In this document: positions 18,803-49,543 of the stretch, one piece after another
Numbering within the stretch: position 1 is the stretch's first letter
Layout: the number at the start of each line of letters is the position of its first letter
Virus record (IMG/VR): IMGVR_UViG_3300028048_000091
Location: 32,001-96,000 of that record
From: a virus
Lineage: Duplodnaviria; Caudoviricetes
DNA: 64,000 nt
Reading direction: 5' to 3' (one strand)
The notes under the pieces: generated by a model
Seen by the model: only the letters and a program-made list of their open reading frames with translations
Database searches by the model: none
What the model was told of the DNA's origin: nothing
Made by a program: the position numbers and the translations under genes

Positions 18803-19606
18803 TTAATTAATTTCTTGCCAATTGGCATTATATATCTTTCCTGTTTGGTTATCCTTAATATATGTAATTGGCACAGGTTTTAGCGAATTAACAACGATTG
18901 CAGACCCTCCTTTCCAATATTGTGCAACAAATGGATAATGTTTAAATGCATTTACCAATGTGCCATATCTCTCAATATCATTCTCAAAATCGTATACTTG
19001 ATTAGGATTTACAAGACAATAATATGTATATTGGCTACCGTTTGATTGGTCATTACCGGGTTCTTTACTTCCCCAAAAGTAGATACCTATATCTGAATTA
19101 TTGGAATATGTATTAGGTTGTCCTTTTTTAACAACCCCATCTGTTATCTTATATGAACTGTCATGCTTCAATACGACTTTATCCCCCGACATTTCAAGTT
19201 GACTCAAAAACATTTGATGTTTCTGTTCTTGCTCTTCTGTCTTTTTCTTTCCAAGGAATACTTCTCCGTAATAGGTATCTCTATATTGGTCATATATCTG
19301 TAGGTATTGTTTCTGATATGCAGGTATATTCAGTTCATTACCTGTACCATCAGGTTTTGTATTATATCCACTTGCTCTGTATCTGAATGTACTGAAATCA
19401 TCTGTTTGTGGAAAATTAGGATTAACCATAAGATAGGCATCACCGCCAGTTCCAATATAAGAACCGTTTTTGATAATACCTATATTAATCCAATTTGTCA
19501 TATCTGTTTCAGATAGACTTTCGTTAAGAAACCTAACATCAGGGTTAAGTTTCTCCATCCATTCGTTAACGTTATCTAACCAATCCTTATTGTTATTTAC
19601 TCCCAT
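18803..19606 (-). CDS. Hypothetical protein with possible C-terminal ADP-ribosyltransferase-like domain
   Basis: N-terminal leader shared with 19597-20511; H.S...GIYF...VYD pattern gives weak support. Confidence 0.5.
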   Translation of the reverse strand: MGVNNNKDWLDNVNEWMEKLNPDVRFLNESLSETDMTNWINIGIIKNGSYIGTGGDAYLMVNPNFPQTDDFSTFRYRASGYNTKPDGTGNELNIPAYQKQYLQIYDQYRDTYYGEVFLGKKKTEEQEQKHQMFLSQLEMSGDKVVLKHDSSYKITDGVVKKGQPNTYSNNSDIGIYFWGSKEPGNDQSNGSQYTYYCLVNPNQVYDFENDIERYGTLVNAFKHYPFVAQYWKGGSAIVVNSLKPVPITYIKDNQTGKIYNANWQEIN

Positions 19607-20511
19607 ATCATAACTTCTCCTTTTCGTCTCATTCTTTCCGATAACTGACAAGGCATCGGATTAACATAGCATTCACCGAATGAAATATCATATGTATATC
19701 GTTTTCCAATACTATCGATGTCATTAAGATGTTCTTGATAATACTTTTCAAAGCCATCGTTTGTTACAGGAATATTGTTTTGATGGCAATATGTTTTATA
19801 TTTGCCAAGTAGTTTATTGCGAATTTCCTTATTTACTTCATCCTTTGATTTAAATGAGGTGAAATATTCTTGTTTGGGGTCATTCTTCCAATATTTATTA
19901 CTTTCTCGGCTATTAACCTTATTACCATTTTTATCAACCCATATTGGTGCTTCATTAGGTGCTTTAATAAGAACGCTGTCTTGGTCATACTTAGCACAAA
20001 GTGATAAACCAAACTGTTTTAATTCATCAAAATCTTTTGTTTGGCCATCTGTTGTATAATTAAATACGATAAATGACGGTTCATAATCGTCCTCGACACC
20101 GTTTGTACCTCTATAACCACCGTATGTAGGTAAGAATGAATATCCACTTTTCTGCAAGTCACTGATAAGTGCCTTTGTTTGTGCATCATTCCTTTCTTGT
20201 GGCATATCACTCCTATTAGCACTAATGTTAATCATACCATTTGTGCCATGTTTCTGAAGTACTCTATCAAGAGTGACTTCATCAATCCTAACAGGCTTAT
20301 TATGATTGCTTATAATACCATAGAAACGGTTCATTACATCTTCATTTACAGTCTTCGCTTTTTCATGAAGTTGTCTGAATGCTTCCTTTCGGTTTCTTTG
20401 TTCTTCTTCGATACTGAGTTTTACTTCATTAATGAAATGGACTTCTGGATTAAGTTTCTCCATCCATTCGTTAACGTTACCTAACCAATCCTTATTGTTA
20501 TTCTGTTGCAT
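19597..20511 (-). CDS. Putative SAM lyase (T3 SAMase-like domain) with N-terminal leader
   Basis: ISANRS...N...GGYRG...EPSFIV...LCAKYDQDSVLI is colinear with T3 SAMase VSAFRS...N...GCYRE...EKTVRV...ACNEWEQDCVLV (recalled from memory). Confidence 0.65.
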   Translation of the reverse strand: MQQNNNKDWLGNVNEWMEKLNPEVHFINEVKLSIEEEQRNRKEAFRQLHEKAKTVNEDVMNRFYGIISNHNKPVRIDEVTLDRVLQKHGTNGMINISANRSDMPQERNDAQTKALISDLQKSGYSFLPTYGGYRGTNGVEDDYEPSFIVFNYTTDGQTKDFDELKQFGLSLCAKYDQDSVLIKAPNEAPIWVDKNGNKVNSRESNKYWKNDPKQEYFTSFKSKDEVNKEIRNKLLGKYKTYCHQNNIPVTNDGFEKYYQEHLNDIDSIGKRYTYDISFGECYVNPMPCQLSERMRRKGEVMIWE

Positions 20512-21341: not shown

Positions 21342-22532
21342 TTAACTAATGTTGAACTCATTTTTAAGACTGTCTACAAGGTCAAGTTTTTCCCAAGGAT
21401 AATTGATTTGATTTTCTACCAATTCCATTTCCTCACGTGTCTTACCATAATGGCCATTTAATGCCGCATTTTTATATCTTTCAACGCCATTACCAAATCT
21501 CTTTATGATATTATGTGGTTCCAATTTGACATTTTCCTTAACCCATCTAACAAGTGCTGATTCAAGTTCCTTATTTTTATCAAGTTCAATACTGATTGAG
21601 GTTGGTTCTGCAACGCCAATTGAATATGATACATCAACAGTTGCAACATTTGCGATACCGGCGGCAACAATATTTTTAGCAATATATCTACACATCATAT
21701 TTGCTGAATAGTCAACTTTTGATGCATCCTTACCATGAAGTCCGCCGGCTGAAATTCTAAATGATGAACCAAATTGGTCACAAGCAAGTTTTCTATTACA
21801 CATTCCACAATCAGAGACACTACCACCCGTATTCCATACACCGGCCGGATTGACATCAATTACAAAATTCTTGTCTGCAATGAATTTATTATATATATCA
21901 TCACTTAGACCGATTTTGTTATATTGTATAGCATTCGTAATATAACCTCGAAGTATTGAAATATCACATTGGTGCATTGAAGATACTAAAATTGAATTTA
22001 TCTTAACAGGGGTATTACCTTCATATTCAATAACGACTTGCGTTTTAGCATCCGGACCAATCTCTAATGTGCTTTTCATAATAAAGTCACAAATATGTTT
22101 GGTTATATAACACCCCAGTGGCATAAACGTTTCAGTTTCATTTGTTGCACCGGCGGTCATCCAGCCTTGGTCACCTGCTGTGGTTATTTCATCTGATACA
22201 TCAACTGCTTTATGAATCTCTGGGGATTGTTTACCAATCAAGTTAATTATTTTAATGTTTTCGGGATATAATCCGTGATTTTTAGGGTATACTATCTCCT
22301 TAAATACGTTTCTTACAATGCTGTCATAATCTACGACACTTTTAGAATAAATCTCGCCGCCAAGAACTACGATGTTATCTTTCATCATAGTTTCAATACC
22401 ACAACGAGAATTAGAATCTCCGCTAACAAAAGCATCAACCAATGCTCCTGCAATTACATCGCACACTTTGTCGGGATGACCCGGTGTTACGGCTTCTACT
22501 GCCAATACACGTTTGTTTTTGTTTTCTACCAT
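21342..22532 (-). CDS. metK: S-adenosylmethionine synthetase
   Basis: EAVTPGHPDK, AGDQG, PDAKTQV, D.G...RK, GGLHGKDASKVD.SA, YSIGVAEP. Confidence 0.95.
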   Translation of the reverse strand: MVENKNKRVLAVEAVTPGHPDKVCDVIAGALVDAFVSGDSNSRCGIETMMKDNIVVLGGEIYSKSVVDYDSIVRNVFKEIVYPKNHGLYPENIKIINLIGKQSPEIHKAVDVSDEITTAGDQGWMTAGATNETETFMPLGCYITKHICDFIMKSTLEIGPDAKTQVVIEYEGNTPVKINSILVSSMHQCDISILRGYITNAIQYNKIGLSDDIYNKFIADKNFVIDVNPAGVWNTGGSVSDCGMCNRKLACDQFGSSFRISAGGLHGKDASKVDYSANMMCRYIAKNIVAAGIANVATVDVSYSIGVAEPTSISIELDKNKELESALVRWVKENVKLEPHNIIKRFGNGVERYKNAALNGHYGKTREEMELVENQINYPWEKLDLVDSLKNEFNIS

Positions 22533-22571
22533 TTAATTTAAAGTTTTAAAAAATTATTGTTTAAAATTAAA

Positions 22572-22640
22572 TGTAGTGAACCTATTAATTAGATTTTAGC
22601 CGTTTTTAAAGAGGTGGCAAGCACTACAAATCCCCTCTAT
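22572..22640 (-). promoter_or_regulatory. SAM-II-class riboswitch in the metK 5' UTR
   Basis: AGAGG-GGAUUU-GUAGUG-CUUGC-CA-CCUCU-UUAAAAAC-GGCUAAAA...CACUAC: P1 helix, GAUUU, UUGC, GCUAAA and pseudoknot pairing GUAGUG/CACUAC. Confidence 0.75.
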
Positions 22641-22646
22641 CGTTTG

Positions 22647-25583: not shown

Positions 25584-26958
25584 GTGAACTACCCCCACCT
25601 AAAGGAGGGGGCTTCCCCATTCAACGAAGCGGCTTGCATTAAGGTTTCCCTTAATGTAGAGGTCACTTCTCCAGGGGCGTAAATTCCCGCAGTTCCTGCG
25701 GTATTATATTCATTTTCTAATACAACACTATAAAAATAGTCTCTAAGGTTTAAGGCAGCATTGTAATCACGGTCAATTACGCAACCACAAGTGGGGCATA
25801 CCCATTCCCGGTCAGATAATTGCAGTAAATCGTTCTTACTACCACATTCATGACAGGTCTTACTACTCGGAAACCATTTATCCACGTACATAACACAACT
25901 ATCACGCTCTATGCACTTGTATTCAAGAAAACTACGAAACTCACCAAAACCTAAATCCATAACGGATTTACCAAGGTGCAAAGTACGAGACATATCTTGC
26001 AGGTTTATATCCTCAAGAACAATTACATCATACTTATCCACGTAGTAACGAGATAGTTTATGGCAGTAGTCTAAACGGCAATTAGCAACATGACGGCTTA
26101 ACTTGGATAAACGCTTCCTCGACTTGTAACGATTGGAAGAACCCTTAACCTTACGTGATACCATACGTTGCAGCCTTTTAAGACGTTTCTCGTTCCTCCG
26201 GTAATTCCTAATGTACTTGGCTTTCGTATCATCGGGATTACTATCGGAATCAACGGAGAAATCCGTCAAAGACATGTCAATGCCTACGATTTTCAATTCA
26301 TTGTATTTTTTATGTTTATGCGTATAGCCAACATTTTCATCAGGGATTTCTACGGCAATGGATGCGTAGTATTGCCCATCCCTTGTCTGTTCAATCGTGC
26401 AAGAAGTGATGTTACCCACTAACTCACGATGTAAGACTATATCCACAAACCCCAACTTAGGAAGTTTAAGTTTCCCATTTTCCAACCGGATAGTACCATT
26501 TTGGTTATTCGTTGTATAGGAAAGTTTGCATTTGCTTTTTTTATGCTTTTTGGGGAAGCGTACTTTTTTTCCTTTGCGTTTTCCTTTTTTGCTATCGAAA
26601 TAGTTTTTAAATGCAGTTTTCAGATGTTGCTTTGCGTTGGCGAGTGCAAGTGAGTCTACTTCGTTAAGGAATGTGTATGTATTTTTAAAGTGCGTTACTT
26701 CTTTTAGTTTTGGTTTTAGTCCGTTGTCAAGTTGTGTTTTATAGTCGTTAAGTAGTGAATTGTATATGAGACGTGCACATCCCACCGTCTTATTTATTAA
26801 GATGGCTTGCTGTGTTGTTGGCAGTAGTTTATACTTGTACGCTCGTCTCATTAGTATTGATTATTTATTATAAGTATAGTATACTTATTGTTATAAGTAA
26901 ATAGTAGTTTTGCAATTCATCCCCCACCTGAAGGAAGGGGACTTCTTGCCAAAAAATA
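25584..26958 (-). mobile_element. IS200/IS605-family (IS1341-like, tnpB-only) element 3
   Basis: Related subterminal hairpins at both ends (CCCCCACCT.AAGGA.GGGG), right end ...GGGTAGTTCAC, preceded by TTTAA; interrupts a small ORF starting at 27016. Confidence 0.85.
25589..26851 (-). CDS. tnpB: TnpB RNA-guided endonuclease
   Basis: GIDMS / LEDI / RDYNAALN, Zn finger CHEC..CPTC. Confidence 0.95.
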   Translation of the reverse strand: MRRAYKYKLLPTTQQAILINKTVGCARLIYNSLLNDYKTQLDNGLKPKLKEVTHFKNTYTFLNEVDSLALANAKQHLKTAFKNYFDSKKGKRKGKKVRFPKKHKKSKCKLSYTTNNQNGTIRLENGKLKLPKLGFVDIVLHRELVGNITSCTIEQTRDGQYYASIAVEIPDENVGYTHKHKKYNELKIVGIDMSLTDFSVDSDSNPDDTKAKYIRNYRRNEKRLKRLQRMVSRKVKGSSNRYKSRKRLSKLSRHVANCRLDYCHKLSRYYVDKYDVIVLEDINLQDMSRTLHLGKSVMDLGFGEFRSFLEYKCIERDSCVMYVDKWFPSSKTCHECGSKNDLLQLSDREWVCPTCGCVIDRDYNAALNLRDYFYSVVLENEYNTAGTAGIYAPGEVTSTLRETLMQAASLNGEAPSFRWG

Positions 26959-37614: not shown

Positions 37615-39060
37615 TTACTTCATTTTATATCCTTTAATATGTTTTAATAATGTCTCTTTATCAATTTTAGGGTTATTGAATGCTAATTTCAAGGCATAAT
37701 CAAGACATTCTTTAACTTCTCTACCAGGTTTCAACCCCTTGATAGCCATTACATCATTTCCGTCAATAGGTAATCTATATCCGGACATGTCAGTGTTTTC
37801 CTCAATCATTTCAGCAGTCCTATCATCAATTAAACGACATTGGTTATTAAAACAATACTCCGGAGCATGTGCCTTGTTATCTGCATCAATCAATGACAAA
37901 AGCATTGCATAATACTTATTGCCACACTCATATTGGAGTTTACGAAGTGACTTATCTTTCATGTGTGAACAGTCATCACCCCAATTCTTAGTTCTCATGT
38001 GATTCTTAACCAAGAACTGTACATCCTTAATGAATTCATTTGAATATTTCAAACGTCTTAGAATGGTTTCACATAAGTCAACAGATGCCAACTCATGCTG
38101 ATAGAAATGGACATTACCATTTTCATCAACAGTTTTTGTCTTAATCTTACCGATATCATGCAGTAATGCGGCCATCCGTAGAGCCAACTTGCCATTAATG
38201 GTAAAAGCACCATAATATAAACAATCATTCGTTACATTATCCAATACTTTGAGAGTATGCTCGAAAACAGTACCAAAATGATATTTGTTCTGTTTCATTC
38301 CAAATGTTTCTTCCAACTCTGGGATAACATATTTCATTGCCCCAATATCTTTAAGCAACTTCATTGCACATACAGGGTCTTTACATAAAAGCATCTTATT
38401 CAATTCATCCGCAATACGTTCCTTGGTAATGATAGACAATCTATCGACATTGAAATACATACCTTTAAGGGTCGTTTCCTCTATATACCAATCAGTTGAC
38501 TCACCATGAAATCTTGAGAAAAAACGCACACACCTCAAAATTCTCAAAGGGTCATCACAATAGACAATATCAGGTGTTGAAGTAACCCTAATACGATGTT
38601 CATTTATGTCTTTTAAGCCATTCCCGGTTATGTCAATTAACTCTTCTTTACTTATATTCCATAACAATGAGTTAATTGTTAAATCCCTACGCATTACATC
38701 TTCTTCGAGTGTACCGTATGCAGTTTCCGGATTCCTACTACTTTCATCATGATACTGTTCTTTCCTTGTCTGAACACATTCTATCTCAACATCGGGAAAA
38801 GATGCAAGTTTGAACATGGCAGTACCATATGTGGGATATGTAACAACAGAACCAAAAGTGAAATGGTTTTTCTCCATCCACTCAGCAAACTTTAACCCTC
38901 CGTTTTCTTTGGTAATCACGAGGTCAATGTCCTTCACATCGTTACCCATAACCATATCACGGACAGCACCTCCTACTGAATATACGTTATTCTCCCATTC
39001 ACTACCGGCAATGATAGTCTTTAAATGATTTAATATTTCCTTATATTTCTCTATTCTCAT
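37615..39060 (-). CDS. cca: CCA tRNA nucleotidyltransferase with HD domain
   Basis: VGGAVRD, KDIDL, RRDLTIN, DDPLRILR..RF, ERI..E, EHT, LLHDIGK. Confidence 0.9.
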   Translation of the reverse strand: MRIEKYKEILNHLKTIIAGSEWENNVYSVGGAVRDMVMGNDVKDIDLVITKENGGLKFAEWMEKNHFTFGSVVTYPTYGTAMFKLASFPDVEIECVQTRKEQYHDESSRNPETAYGTLEEDVMRRDLTINSLLWNISKEELIDITGNGLKDINEHRIRVTSTPDIVYCDDPLRILRCVRFFSRFHGESTDWYIEETTLKGMYFNVDRLSIITKERIADELNKMLLCKDPVCAMKLLKDIGAMKYVIPELEETFGMKQNKYHFGTVFEHTLKVLDNVTNDCLYYGAFTINGKLALRMAALLHDIGKIKTKTVDENGNVHFYQHELASVDLCETILRRLKYSNEFIKDVQFLVKNHMRTKNWGDDCSHMKDKSLRKLQYECGNKYYAMLLSLIDADNKAHAPEYCFNNQCRLIDDRTAEMIEENTDMSGYRLPIDGNDVMAIKGLKPGREVKECLDYALKLAFNNPKIDKETLLKHIKGYKMK

Positions 39061-40322: not shown

Positions 40323-41585
40323 TTAAAACTTACACAAAGTTGAACTTCGTGATTTATTAACTTCTTGCTTCACAGAGCCACTACTTTTTAGCGAATCATT
40401 TCTGATTGGGTCATCCATAGTTGGGTTCTCCACAAGCTTAGATTCGGGTGAACTGCACCCTATTATTCTTAATCCCTCATCCAATATATTTAATGCTGCA
40501 TTGTAGTCTCTACTAATTACTTCTCCGCAATGAGGGCATATCCATTCTCTGTCATTCAATGTCAATTCCTTATTGACATAACCGCAATTATGACACGTCT
40601 TTGAACTTGGGTAAAATCTGTCAACAAATACTATCCTTCTGTTGCACCAAGAAGCCTTGTACTCAAGCATACGTCTGAACTCTCCAAAGTTCATTTCCAA
40701 AATGCTTTCTGCAAGGTTATGATTCTTAGACATACCTTTCACATTTAAGTCCTCCATACATATGACTTGGTTTTCGTCAATGAGTGAATTACTTACGCTG
40801 TGAAGATAGTATTCTTTTCTATCGTTTATTTTCTTATACACCTTAGCAAGTTTAATCCTTGCTTTATTTCTGTTATTACTTCCTTTCTGTTTTCTTGAAA
40901 GTTGCTTCTGAAGTTTCTTTATCTTCTTTGTTTCTGATTTTTTGAAATGAAGATTATCGAACACTTCTCCTTCAGATGTAATAACGAAATCCTTAACGCC
41001 AAGGTCTATTCCTACTACTGAATTTGTTTCTTTGACTTGATGCATCAAGTCTCCGTCAACAAGAATTGAAAGGTAATACTCTCCACAAGGCAAACGTTTT
41101 AATGTTACTTGTCTTATACAATTCTTATGTTTTTCAAGATACTCAGCATATTTCTTGTTACATCTGAACTTAACATTTCTTATATTAGCAAGAGAAATCT
41201 TGTAGTCTGTATAGACGTTACGCTTGGAGATTGCTCCAAGTTCAAATCTACAAGATTGTTTATTATCGTGCTTTGACTTAAACTTAGGAAATCCACTATG
41301 CTGTTCGAAGAAATTCTTATATGCTGTCAGCATATCTTTCACTGCTTGTTTCAAGACTTTAGTGTTTTGCTCTCTAAGCCATATGAAATTGTCGTCTTTC
41401 AGTAATTCGTGATGAACAAACTGGCCTAACGTAGATAAGTTTTCAGTTATTCCATTATTCTTATATGATTCAATCTTTCTGTTAAGACATTGATTATACA
41501 CAACACGATAGCAGCCAAGCAATTTATTGTACTGAGTTGCTTGTTCTTTGTTCGGATATAATCGTATCTTAACTGCTCTTAACAT
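40323..41585 (-). CDS. tnpB: TnpB RNA-guided endonuclease
   Basis: Close paralog of 5955-7214 with intact RuvC D/E/D. Confidence 0.95.
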   Translation of the reverse strand: MLRAVKIRLYPNKEQATQYNKLLGCYRVVYNQCLNRKIESYKNNGITENLSTLGQFVHHELLKDDNFIWLREQNTKVLKQAVKDMLTAYKNFFEQHSGFPKFKSKHDNKQSCRFELGAISKRNVYTDYKISLANIRNVKFRCNKKYAEYLEKHKNCIRQVTLKRLPCGEYYLSILVDGDLMHQVKETNSVVGIDLGVKDFVITSEGEVFDNLHFKKSETKKIKKLQKQLSRKQKGSNNRNKARIKLAKVYKKINDRKEYYLHSVSNSLIDENQVICMEDLNVKGMSKNHNLAESILEMNFGEFRRMLEYKASWCNRRIVFVDRFYPSSKTCHNCGYVNKELTLNDREWICPHCGEVISRDYNAALNILDEGLRIIGCSSPESKLVENPTMDDPIRNDSLKSSGSVKQEVNKSRSSTLCKF

Positions 41586-48202: not shown

Positions 48203-49543
48203 TTAAATTCCTAATTGTTTTCTTCTTATACTAAGGAGTAGGTCATTAACAAAATCAACGTTTATCTCATCCGGAATAGTAGACTCGGCCATTGCTTTCT
48301 CCATTTCGTCTTTTCTTGCATTGAGTTTTTCCATAAGTTCATCATATTCATACTTATGGTTTCTGATGTCAAGCAAGAACTCTGCATCAATTCCGCTTCT
48401 GTCAACTTTGTAACCCTCTCCACGTGCAATCTCAATACCACAATTCATAAGTCTGAAACATTCACATATGTTCTTAGCATCATATGACTTATGAAGATTA
48501 CTCTCATACCTCACTGGATTACGATGTTTAACCCAATCTTGATATTCAAGCCACCTACGGCAATGTTGGCTGTAAGAATCCTTCATATAAGAAATATGGC
48601 ATATCGGCATTTCATCCTTTTCGACTGAAGACAACCTCAGTTCATTAGATGTGTGGTCTCGATTAACCATACCTTTATATCCAATAGGCTTCTGTTCCTT
48701 ATACCATTTTTCAAGGTTATCGGCTGTGAAGTCATAACTATCATAAGGCGCACTATCCACACGTAAATGATAAAAATCTACAATAAGTTTTACCATATTC
48801 TTGAATTGTGCTTTTTTAAGAACCTCTTTCAAATCCTCACGTCCATCTTCCTTAATTTGTCTTACAATCTTAATTGTATCATAGTCAGTAATGTCATTCC
48901 ATGCATCAATCAAATCCTCACAAGTTACACCTTCATGAAGAAAATGATTTCCCCAATCATAGAAACAGCCAAACATAGTAGGCATGTTAGCAATATTGAC
49001 AAGGCCGCAATACTCTTGTTTTAAGCCCCTATATTCAAGCCAATTGAGTATCTTACTACTTCCTTGTTTATGGAATGTGTACACAAAGTCAAGTAATTCC
49101 CTACGCTCAGGAACATCCCAATTAATAAGTTTCTTCAAACCAGTAGCCTTTTTGATTTGAGAGCGTCCGTATGAGTAAAAACTGTCGAAACACTTCTTTG
49201 TAAGAAACTCATTCTTATATGATTTAAGTTCAGTCATAATAGGATGCTCAAACTGAACATACTTGTCATCTACAAACAATGCTTCAAGTACGGTAGGATT
49301 AGACTTCAGTAGCAGATTCATGAACTTCTGCATTTCATACCATACAATGTCATTTGTCTCATTGGCAATCTGGTCTTGATAATCCAAACCAAGACCAATT
49401 AACTGTTCAGCCGGTGCTAAGAACACGCCTCCATAGTCTTCATCGGACAAAGGGGTGCTAATACCGTGACAGTGGCTTCCACGTAAGTAATTGTAAATCA
49501 ATAAGTTACGCTCTTTTATTTCACTAAAACTATAAGTCTTCAT
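48203..49543 (-). CDS. Pol-beta superfamily nucleotidyltransferase
   Basis: RGSH.HG.STP.SD.D.GG, LLKSNP..LEAL, YDAKN, LLDIR. Confidence 0.8.
   Translation of the reverse strand: MKTYSFSEIKERNLLIYNYLRGSHCHGISTPLSDEDYGGVFLAPAEQLIGLGLDYQDQIANETNDIVWYEMQKFMNLLLKSNPTVLEALFVDDKYVQFEHPIMTELKSYKNEFLTKKCFDSFYSYGRSQIKKATGLKKLINWDVPERRELLDFVYTFHKQGSSKILNWLEYRGLKQEYCGLVNIANMPTMFGCFYDWGNHFLHEGVTCEDLIDAWNDITDYDTIKIVRQIKEDGREDLKEVLKKAQFKNMVKLIVDFYHLRVDSAPYDSYDFTADNLEKWYKEQKPIGYKGMVNRDHTSNELRLSSVEKDEMPICHISYMKDSYSQHCRRWLEYQDWVKHRNPVRYESNLHKSYDAKNICECFRLMNCGIEIARGEGYKVDRSGIDAEFLLDIRNHKYEYDELMEKLNARKDEMEKAMAESTIPDEINVDFVNDLLLSIRRKQLGI

Follow-up and report, generated by a model that had tools for sequence, protein, structure and literature searches.

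Riboswitches of the SAM-II "long loops" type (Rfam family RF01726) have been described from Bacteroidetes and from marine metagenomes, in most cases ahead of metK, and long structured insertions are tolerated in the motif (Weinberg et al. 2010, PMC2864571). In the solved structure of classical SAM-II (RF00521; the metX aptamer, PDB 2QWY), uridines U10 to U12 of loop L1 sit in the major groove of helix P2b and touch S-adenosylmethionine (SAM), whose adenine stacks between the U and the G of a UUGC block and is paired by the unpaired U44 (PMC3303485). Here we describe an element of the long-loops type in the leader of metK, the gene for S-adenosylmethionine synthetase, on a virus record of IMG/VR (IMGVR_UViG_3300028048_000091). 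The DNA analyzed, 64,000 nucleotides corresponding to bases 32001 to 96000 of this 106.7-kb record, is referred to as the window. The evidence supports as new a member of the SAM-II long-loop family that resides in a jumbo phage and carries both an inserted hairpin and a covarying helix over the start codon.

Metabolite riboswitches are rarely reported in phages (McCown et al. 2017, PMC5473149), as the initial annotation of this locus, made by a model from the sequence alone, had remarked. Those known are c-di-GMP-I riboswitches in C. difficile prophages and glutamine riboswitches in cyanophages, pelagiphages, and the OM43 phage Melnitz (PMC5473149, PMC9004378), and the literature we searched reports these two classes in phages and no SAM-class riboswitch. 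The metK element resembles them as a phage-encoded, putatively metabolite-sensing aptamer ahead of a phage gene. It differs in class and predicted ligand, in that the phage gene makes the sensed metabolite, and in being inherited across the metK clade of jumbo phages. Among bacterial SAM-II switches, those of S. meliloti metA and metZ respond to SAM with lowered translation or predicted transcription termination, metA being controlled at a distance, for which a standby site has been proposed (PMC9373788). For the phage locus as a whole, we consider it probable that the best explanation is a genuine SAM-II-class riboswitch on metK, with the start-codon helix, here called S, as its platform, that turns the gene off in the presence of SAM.

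A SAM-II-class aptamer upstream of phage metK

The metK gene is read from the minus strand, its AUG beginning at 22532, and its product matches all three S-AdoMet synthetase domains of Pfam (E-values 6e-35, 5e-26, and 6e-18). The gap upstream of metK is 166 nt long and holds the SAM-II-type element, also on the minus strand; the aptamer occupies 66 nt (22638 to 22573) and ends 40 nt upstream of the gene. The parts of the leader are collected in Table 1.

Infernal was run with all 4227 Rfam families on a 301-nt region, with matches reported up to an E-value of 10. RF01726 matches 22643 to 22586 end to end (35.1 bits, E 3e-5), RF00521 (SAM_alpha) reaches 17.2 bits (E 0.11), and neither SAM-V (RF01826) nor any further family gave a match; with gathering thresholds applied, the window has no match to any Rfam family. 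The covariance-model comparison that the initial annotation had proposed thus returned a significant hit to RF01726, below gathering score, a weak one to SAM_alpha, and none to SAM-V. Over the whole record, RF01726 remains the only notable match (E 2.6e-6), the next best standing at 17 bits. The score in the window is low because L1 is 2 nt shorter than in the RF01726 model, because an insert displaces the tail, and because the model cannot score the pseudoknot. Homologous leaders score 47.3 (L133), 46.4 (L208/G002), 35.9 (L009), and 31.9 bits (L134), the first two exceeding the 44-bit gathering score of the family. Judged by model match and comparative sequence evidence, the assignment of the element to the SAM-II class, long-loops type (RF01726), is supported.

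The likeness to RF01726 extends to the presence, order, and spacing of P1, GAUUUG, UUGC, the A-rich L3, and GCUAAA, to a TAnnTTTG box directly upstream, which is annotated in the alignment file of Weinberg et al., and to the metK gene downstream. The differences in the window are the phage setting, the lower score, the shorter L1, and the position of the insert. All strings quoted in the initial annotation were found on the minus strand at the place it gave. Its P1 (AGAGG/CCUCU) aligns to P1 of RF01726 and covaries in relatives, and the order GAUUU, UUGC, GCUAAA that it proposed is the order in the sequence. Its structure stands as to these blocks and the pseudoknot, and is incomplete elsewhere, as the stretch that it passed over with an ellipsis is a conserved 17-nt hairpin and the helix at the start codon was also missed.

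P2b and P2a of an H-type pseudoknot form where the loop strand GUAGUG-C-UUGC meets its complement in the 3' tail, GC(U)AA...CACUAC. The pseudoknot pairing GUAGUG/CACUAC predicted earlier is upheld by six Watson-Crick pairs and by covariation in relatives. A Watson-Crick complement of 6 bp starting from the first or second loop base arose in 113 of 20000 shuffled tails (p ~0.006); combined over eight leaders by Fisher's method, such tests give 1e-9, a value that is indicative and not an exact probability, the leaders being related. With G-U pairs allowed, a 6-bp P2a appears in 37% of shuffled A/U-rich tails, which is not discriminating, and the Watson-Crick-only test was used instead.

The ligand-contacting bases of the SAM-II structure (the UUU of L1, the U-G step of UUGC, and the U and AA of GCUAAA) are present in the window and invariant across the phage leaders, and the metK leader is accordingly predicted to bind SAM. 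The phage element is thus like classical SAM-II in its H-type pseudoknot, in the expected placement of L1 in the P2b major groove, and in the bases that contact the ligand, namely, the three L1 uridines, the U-G step, the unpaired U, and the A-U pairs. It is unlike classical SAM-II in its low score to RF00521, in lacking a Shine-Dalgarno sequence within the P2 3' strand or beyond it, and in using a separate helix that reaches an AUG 40 nt downstream.

The box TATATTTG ahead of P1 would serve as the promoter. The TAnnTTTG motif shows no enrichment in the window (86 observed versus 90 expected); the weight of the box comes only from its position before the aptamer, which is conserved across related leaders, at 5 to 17 nt before P1 in 10 of 10. 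A sigma-70-like promoter match, TTGCCA-16-TAAAAT (10/12, the best of the region), lies inside the aptamer at 22620 to 22593 on the minus strand and is probably an artefact, because it is built from the conserved SAM-II blocks UUGCCA and GCUAAAAU.

Covariation across related leaders

Metagenomic relatives of this MetK grade from 99% down to 62% identity and then drop to ~52%. Nine further distinct leaders, belonging to metK genes 68 to 99% identical to that of the window, carry the same element: L009 (99%), L218 (98%), L415 (86%), L416 (74%), L133 (72%; the leader L208/G002 is near-identical to it), L293 (70%), L294 (69%), L217 (69%), and L134 (68%). L216, which has the same aptamer as the window, was left out of the count. 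A contig of P0002 (L130) begins at the gene and has no leader to compare. Relatives L131, L135/L136, and L137/L139/L140 have no such leader, and one of these is a complete 387.5-kb record with a large terminase.

Leaders with the insert (alignment A3) and without it (A4) were aligned separately, five each; a MAFFT alignment of all leaders together (A2) had split P2a and misplaced P1 and was discarded. In A4, the 14 pairs of P1, P2a, and P2b are 95.7% paired, versus 30 to 64% when the partner columns are slid. Seven of the 14 change on both sides, among them 4 of 5 P2a pairs and 1 P2b pair, and 0 of 500 shuffles reach the observed percent paired or covariation score. In A3, P2a and P2b are 100% paired, versus 26 to 54% when slid, with two compensatory pairs, and 39 of 500 shuffles reach the observed value; P2a and P2b are fully paired in A4 as well. 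P1 occurs as AGAGG/CCUCU, AGGG/CCCU, AAGG/CCUU, and GUGG/CCAC, with two positions changing on both sides. P2a is more varied, occurring as GUAGUG/CACUAC, GUGGUG/UACCAC, GUAGC/GCUAC, GGGAC/GUCCC, GGGGC/GUCCC, GUAGA/UCUAC, GUAGAC/GUCUAC, and UGCGGC/GCCGCA. In L134 and L217, a change of UUGC to UUGU is matched by a change of GCUAAA to ACUAAA, a compensatory replacement of C-G by U-A in P2b. These leaders demonstrate both the architecture of the aptamer and its covariation in phages.

A helix over the start codon

Helix S appears in the minimum-free-energy fold of the whole leader and pairs a strand that overlaps the end of P2a with a strand containing the metK AUG (Table 1). Its duplex energy in the window is -8.9 kcal/mol, reached by 22 of 2000 shuffles, and in 9 of 11 leaders the energy of S is reached by at most 2% of shuffles. 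In alignment A5, which spans the P2a 3' strand through codon 3, with S counted in nine leaders, the 9-bp core is 95.1% paired, versus 22 to 50% when slid, and 0 of 500 shuffles reach the observed value. Three pairs change on both sides, as in CAUUUAAUU/AAUUAAAUG, CAUUAAUUU/AAAUUAAUG, and CAUAUAAUU/AAUUAUAUG. The distance from P2a to the AUG is 35 to 43 nt in 9 of 11 leaders.

The metK leader contains no Shine-Dalgarno-like sequence, and a scan of it for intrinsic terminators found none. Bacteroidota ribosomes do not rely on Shine-Dalgarno pairing, and start-codon occlusion as the regulatory output fits such hosts. On this comparative evidence, helix S is probably the expression platform, acting by occlusion of the start codon. 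In S. meliloti metA, too, the aptamer governs a start codon tens of nucleotides downstream (PMC9373788); there, the Shine-Dalgarno sequence lies inside the aptamer and a terminator is present, neither of which is seen in the phage leader.

Host metK leaders with SAM-II long loops often carry a CCCAU complementary to an AUGGG start, 10 of 78 passing a crude test at the 0.05 level. Bacteroidota with this CCCAU include L304, L308, L329, L338, L374, L388, and L414. This hints that start-codon occlusion may be a general output of SAM-II long loops in Bacteroidota.

Table 1. Parts of the metK leader and the regulated gene, in window coordinates
Feature	Position	Strand	Basis
TATATTTG, putative Bacteroidota-type -7 promoter box (TAnnTTTG), 8 nt 5' of P1	22647..22654	-	Sequence
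P1 5' strand, AGAGG	22634..22638	-	Complementary to 22614-22610; RF01726 alignment places it at P1
L1, G-GAUUU; its UUU corresponds to U10-U12	22628..22633	-	GAUUU invariant in phage leaders
P2a 5' strand, GUAGUG	22622..22627	-	Six Watson-Crick pairs with 22578-22573
P2b 5' strand, UUGC, equivalents of U20-U21-G22-C23; follows a C between P2a and P2b	22617..22620	-	Conserved
P1 3' strand, CCUCU, preceded by CA	22610..22614	-	Pairing and RF01726 alignment
L3, UUAAAAACG, A-rich strand	22601..22609	-	Aligned to A-rich L3 of RF01726; A-rich in all relatives
P2b 3' strand, GC-U-AA; U22598 is the equivalent of unpaired U44	22596..22600	-	Alignment and covariation
GCUAAAA block	22594..22600	-	Sequence
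Inserted hairpin, AAUCUA / loop AUUAA / UAGGUU, between the 3' strands of P2b and P2a	22579..22595	-	Folding
P2a 3' strand, CACUAC	22573..22578	-	Pairs with GUAGUG
Helix S 5' strand, CUAC-AUUUAAUUU; first 4 nt shared with the P2a 3' strand	22564..22576	-	Minimum-free-energy fold, covariation
Helix S 3' strand, AAAUUAA-AUG-G-UAG (AAAUUAAAUG-UAG); contains the metK start codon, 22532-22530	22526..22539	-	Minimum-free-energy fold, covariation
metK, S-adenosylmethionine synthetase, 396 aa, regulated gene	21342..22532	-	Pfam PF00438, PF02772, PF02773

The inserted hairpin

The 17-nt hairpin between the 3' strands of P2b and P2a folds alone and within the whole leader. Inserts of 15 to 21 nt occupy the same site in other leaders with different hairpin sequences, AAUUCC/GGAAUU in L415, AAUCUAA/UUAGGUU in L416, and GUCU/AGAU in L294. 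The evidence for the hairpin consists of folds of the individual sequences, as the hairpin columns cannot be aligned for pair counting. In a structural model, P2b, the hairpin, and P2a would meet as a three-way junction.

The site lies 3' of GCUAAA, whereas the insert columns of the alignment of Weinberg et al. fall in the P1 loop and in L3. A hairpin also separates GCUAAA from a distant P2a strand in the host leaders L313, L321, L393, L299, and L372. The insert site is thus unusual but not phage specific. In three of these leaders (L313, L321, and L393; Bacteroidia/Paludibacteraceae), the P2a 3' strand CAGUC follows GCUAAA by ~20 nt, with the small hairpin before it, and lies within the loop of a terminator-like stem (CCACAAGC...GCUUGUGG and a U run), an arrangement that points to a transcriptional form of the switch.

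Proposed direction and mechanism of switching

On the reading preferred here, transcription would probably start a few bases past the TATATTTG box, and the first 66 nt would form the H-type pseudoknot, with the L1 uridines in the P2b groove and U22598 free for the adenine of SAM. The last strand of the pseudoknot would continue, free of gaps, into the 9- to 13-bp A/U-rich helix S that holds the metK AUG. Without Shine-Dalgarno pairing, what could be gated is how accessible the AUG and the preceding A-rich region are. SAM binding would most likely lock L1 and the A-rich tail into the pseudoknot, removing a single-stranded landing site for the ribosome, and the locking of L1 would free the strand AUUUAAUUU, otherwise able to pair with L1. 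Helix S, stacked on P2a, would then close the start codon, and MetK synthesis would drop when SAM is plentiful.

We infer both the direction and the mechanism of switching, and lean only slightly toward SAM turning metK off. This direction is favored because of the S. meliloti precedent, because a metK switch would give homeostatic feedback, because P2a and S stack without a gap, and because the S 5' strand can pair with L1, as it does in folds of 6 to 7 of 9 leaders when the transcript is cut before the start region. To our knowledge, the remaining SAM-II switches that have been tested are off switches as well.

Several observations weigh against this reading. The 35.1 bits of the window lie below the gathering score of 44 for RF01726, and the match alone would fail curation. 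Thermodynamic folding does not set the aptamer alone (z 0.14) or the whole leader (z 0.02) apart from shuffles, flat minimum-free-energy z-scores being expected because the structure is a pseudoknot in A/U-rich RNA. Helix S is only weak in L415 and L294, and the pairing of its 5' strand with L1 is short and A/U rich and may be fortuitous. S shares 1 to 4 nt with the P2a 3' strand, and the invariant last C has two possible partners, the G in GAUUUG and the G in AUG; on the ordinary logic of strand sharing, the ligand should weaken S and not strengthen it. In constraint folding, the AUG of the "bound" state is more open in window-type leaders, with no consistent trend in the others.

The same aptamer could act in the opposite sense, as an ON switch, which we consider unlikely. 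Without SAM, the free P2a 3' strand would extend S (CUAC-AUUUAAUUU with AAAUUAAAUG-UAG) and bury the AUG, and SAM would pull CACUAC into P2a, reducing S to weak A-U pairs and allowing translation of metK. Consistent with this, the shared P2a bases lie inside S in nine leaders, with the C-G pair to the G of AUG in 9 of 9. The duplex with these bases has -8.9 (window) or -10.5 kcal/mol (L133), compared with about -2 kcal/mol for the downstream part alone. When the aptamer bases are withheld, the predicted unpaired fraction of the AUG rises from 0.00-0.18 to 0.38-0.46 in window-type leaders. However, this trend reverses or vanishes in L294, L134, L217, and L293; in L134 and L217, moreover, S and P2a have a single base in common, the loss of which would be offset by flush stacking on P2a. 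Positive feedback on SAM synthesis would also prevent recovery from SAM depletion, and we know of no SAM-II or SAM-V ON switch. What is described for S. meliloti is down-regulation (PMC9373788). If SAM did turn metK on, with a SAM-lyase-family gene downstream, MetK would be held back during SAM depletion.

What remains falls to effects on the transcript, which are compatible with translational control. An aptamer acting mainly at this level, whether by ending transcription early (pseudoknot plus the U-rich AUUUAAUUUU after it), by way of Rho, or via RNA stability, with S constitutive, is improbable in our estimate. A U-rich run does follow P2a in most leaders, and the Rfam consensus ends in ..CAGuauuu; terminator-like hairpins follow the aptamer in the host leaders L313, L321, and L393. 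In S. meliloti, metZ has a predicted and metA a validated terminator, and high SAM raises the level of short riboswitch RNAs and stabilizes RNAs (PMC9373788). Yet the phage metK leader has no terminator-like stem, it is difficult to see why S should covary with the start codon if the start of translation were not the target, and the distance from aptamer to AUG stays within 35 to 43 nt in 9 of 11 leaders.

A variant aptamer with another ligand, such as S-adenosylhomocysteine (SAH), a SAM derivative like SAM-AMP, or another metabolite, is very unlikely. SAM-I variants that sense spermidine provide a precedent (PMC10853860), the Rfam score is below threshold and the insert unusual, and the nearby lyase-family gene has relatives that include SAM-AMP lyases (PMC12255297); against these stand the unchanged state of every SAM-contacting position of the solved structure, the regulated gene, which is the SAM synthetase itself, and the insert-less relatives that pass the RF01726 threshold. 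Chance resemblance or a functionless, decayed relic, for which the score under the gathering threshold and the ease of forming P2a with G-U pairs in an A/U-rich context might be cited, is hardly credible given an E-value of 3e-5 and conservation with compensatory change across metK genes diverged to 68% identity.

Phage setting, origin, and distribution

The element belongs to the phage genome and not to flanking host DNA, because the sequence comes from an IMG/VR virus record, because the window is a one-strand array of small genes that includes PHROG matches, almost all long open reading frames (ORFs) lying on the minus strand, because a complete 387.5-kb relative bears the same metK clade and a large terminase, and because the metK loci of relatives encode NrdD, dUTPase, phage lysozyme, and tRNA genes. 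The claim that a metK leader of this kind lies in a phage is borne out by the Pfam domains, the record, and the terminase-bearing relative. CheckV completeness of the record is 27%, implying a genome of ~390 kb, and the host of this rumen phage is a member of the Bacteroidota. The stretch with the metK leader is present in bovine, goat, and sheep gut runs. In a metatranscriptome run, it lies on one 11.8-kb contig, possibly DNA, and such contigs cannot reveal transcript starts or ends; a second run of the same sample gave low-depth pieces only, with 22486 to 22642 uncovered.

In a maximum-likelihood tree, 23 phage-type MetK proteins form one clade with 100/100 support. This clade is 30 to 39% identical to, and in the tree far apart from, the Bacteroidota MetK proteins encoded behind host SAM-II long-loop aptamers. 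Genes with the riboswitch occur in both main subclades of phage MetK, and genes without it branch from within them. An insert is present in the leaders of the window, L415, and L416, and in that of L294, placed nearby at a position the tree does not resolve; it is absent from those of L133, L134, L217, and L293. Because the riboswitch is found in both subclades, the losses are nested, and host metK is so distant, the tree argues that the association of riboswitch and metK is old in the phage lineage, with later losses, and did not arise by the recent capture of a host gene with its leader. A search of cellular genome contigs with the phage MetK found no cellular relative, and a phage genome collection gave only short matches of 72%, inside the metK of unrelated phages.

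Among host aptamers, 81 of 109 precede metK, and a strict motif scan of bacteria represented by one genome per species gave at least 120 matches, mostly Bacteroidota. A first pattern scan of IMG/VR (GGATTTG..TTGCCACCTC) was dominated by unrelated prophage sequence and left one usable, near-identical relative; the strict motif gave 53 matches there, only a handful of them real (a close relative, L208, L169, and L193). L169 and L193 also score above gathering and may belong to phage genes or to host flanks. L169:1-52 (minus strand) scores 53.9 bits to RF01726 and is truncated at the contig end, and L193:827-903 (plus strand) scores 41.6 bits to RF00521 and is followed only by small ORFs.

Neighboring genes

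A 304-aa protein encoded at 19597 to 20511 of the window (minus strand) matches the S-AdoMet lyase family PF23780 with 35.1 bits (cut-off 28), and a gene of this family lies zero to three genes downstream of metK in most of the relatives fetched (P0002, P0004, L133, L134, and L294). Because the lyase-family gene recurs near metK in most relatives, MetK and the SAM-lyase-like protein form a conserved pair. SAM-AMP lyases, proposed to act as anti-CRISPRs, are among the relatives of the family (PMC12255297). In L133 (575-1378) and L134 (1-756), a gene for an N6/N4 DNA methyltransferase (PF01555), a consumer of SAM, lies just upstream of the riboswitch and metK.

Other genes of the window and its relatives concern mobility and RNA. 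Three ORFs of 419 to 420 aa (5955-7214, 25589-26851, and 40323-41585, all on the minus strand) match the phrog_506 transposase with E-values of 1e-109 to 1e-122 and are multiple copies of one transposase-type gene within the phage genome. A tRNA nucleotidyltransferase of the CCA-adding type (phrog_2244) is encoded at 37615 to 39060 and a second nucleotidyltransferase (phrog_388) at 48203 to 49543, both on the minus strand, and in the relative L293 a PolyA_pol/HD gene adjoins metK. In L135, a 67% identical relative, three tRNA genes (38-611) lie just upstream of a metK without riboswitch.

Significance

By the comparative evidence, a SAM riboswitch has been passed down in a lineage of rumen and gut phages with genomes of ~390 kb. 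As the gene it would control makes the sensed metabolite, the phage itself would sense the methyl-donor pool of the infected cell. The metK leaders are a compact, covarying example of possible translational gating in Bacteroidota without Shine-Dalgarno sequences, a mechanism that has not been worked out even for the SAM-II long-loop switches of the hosts. Should SAM turn metK on, the leader would be the first SAM-activated representative of SAM-II.

As a tentative picture, a clade of jumbo phages of Bacteroidota may long have kept a SAM riboswitch that gates translation without a Shine-Dalgarno sequence by means of a strand swapping between L1 and the start codon. It might form part of a phage SAM economy, together with MetK, the SAM-lyase-family protein, and DNA methyltransferases, that times the refill of SAM after a drain by the phage or by host defense. 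With its conserved SAM-lyase-family neighbor, the metK locus is a good place to study phage handling of SAM against SAM-dependent defenses.

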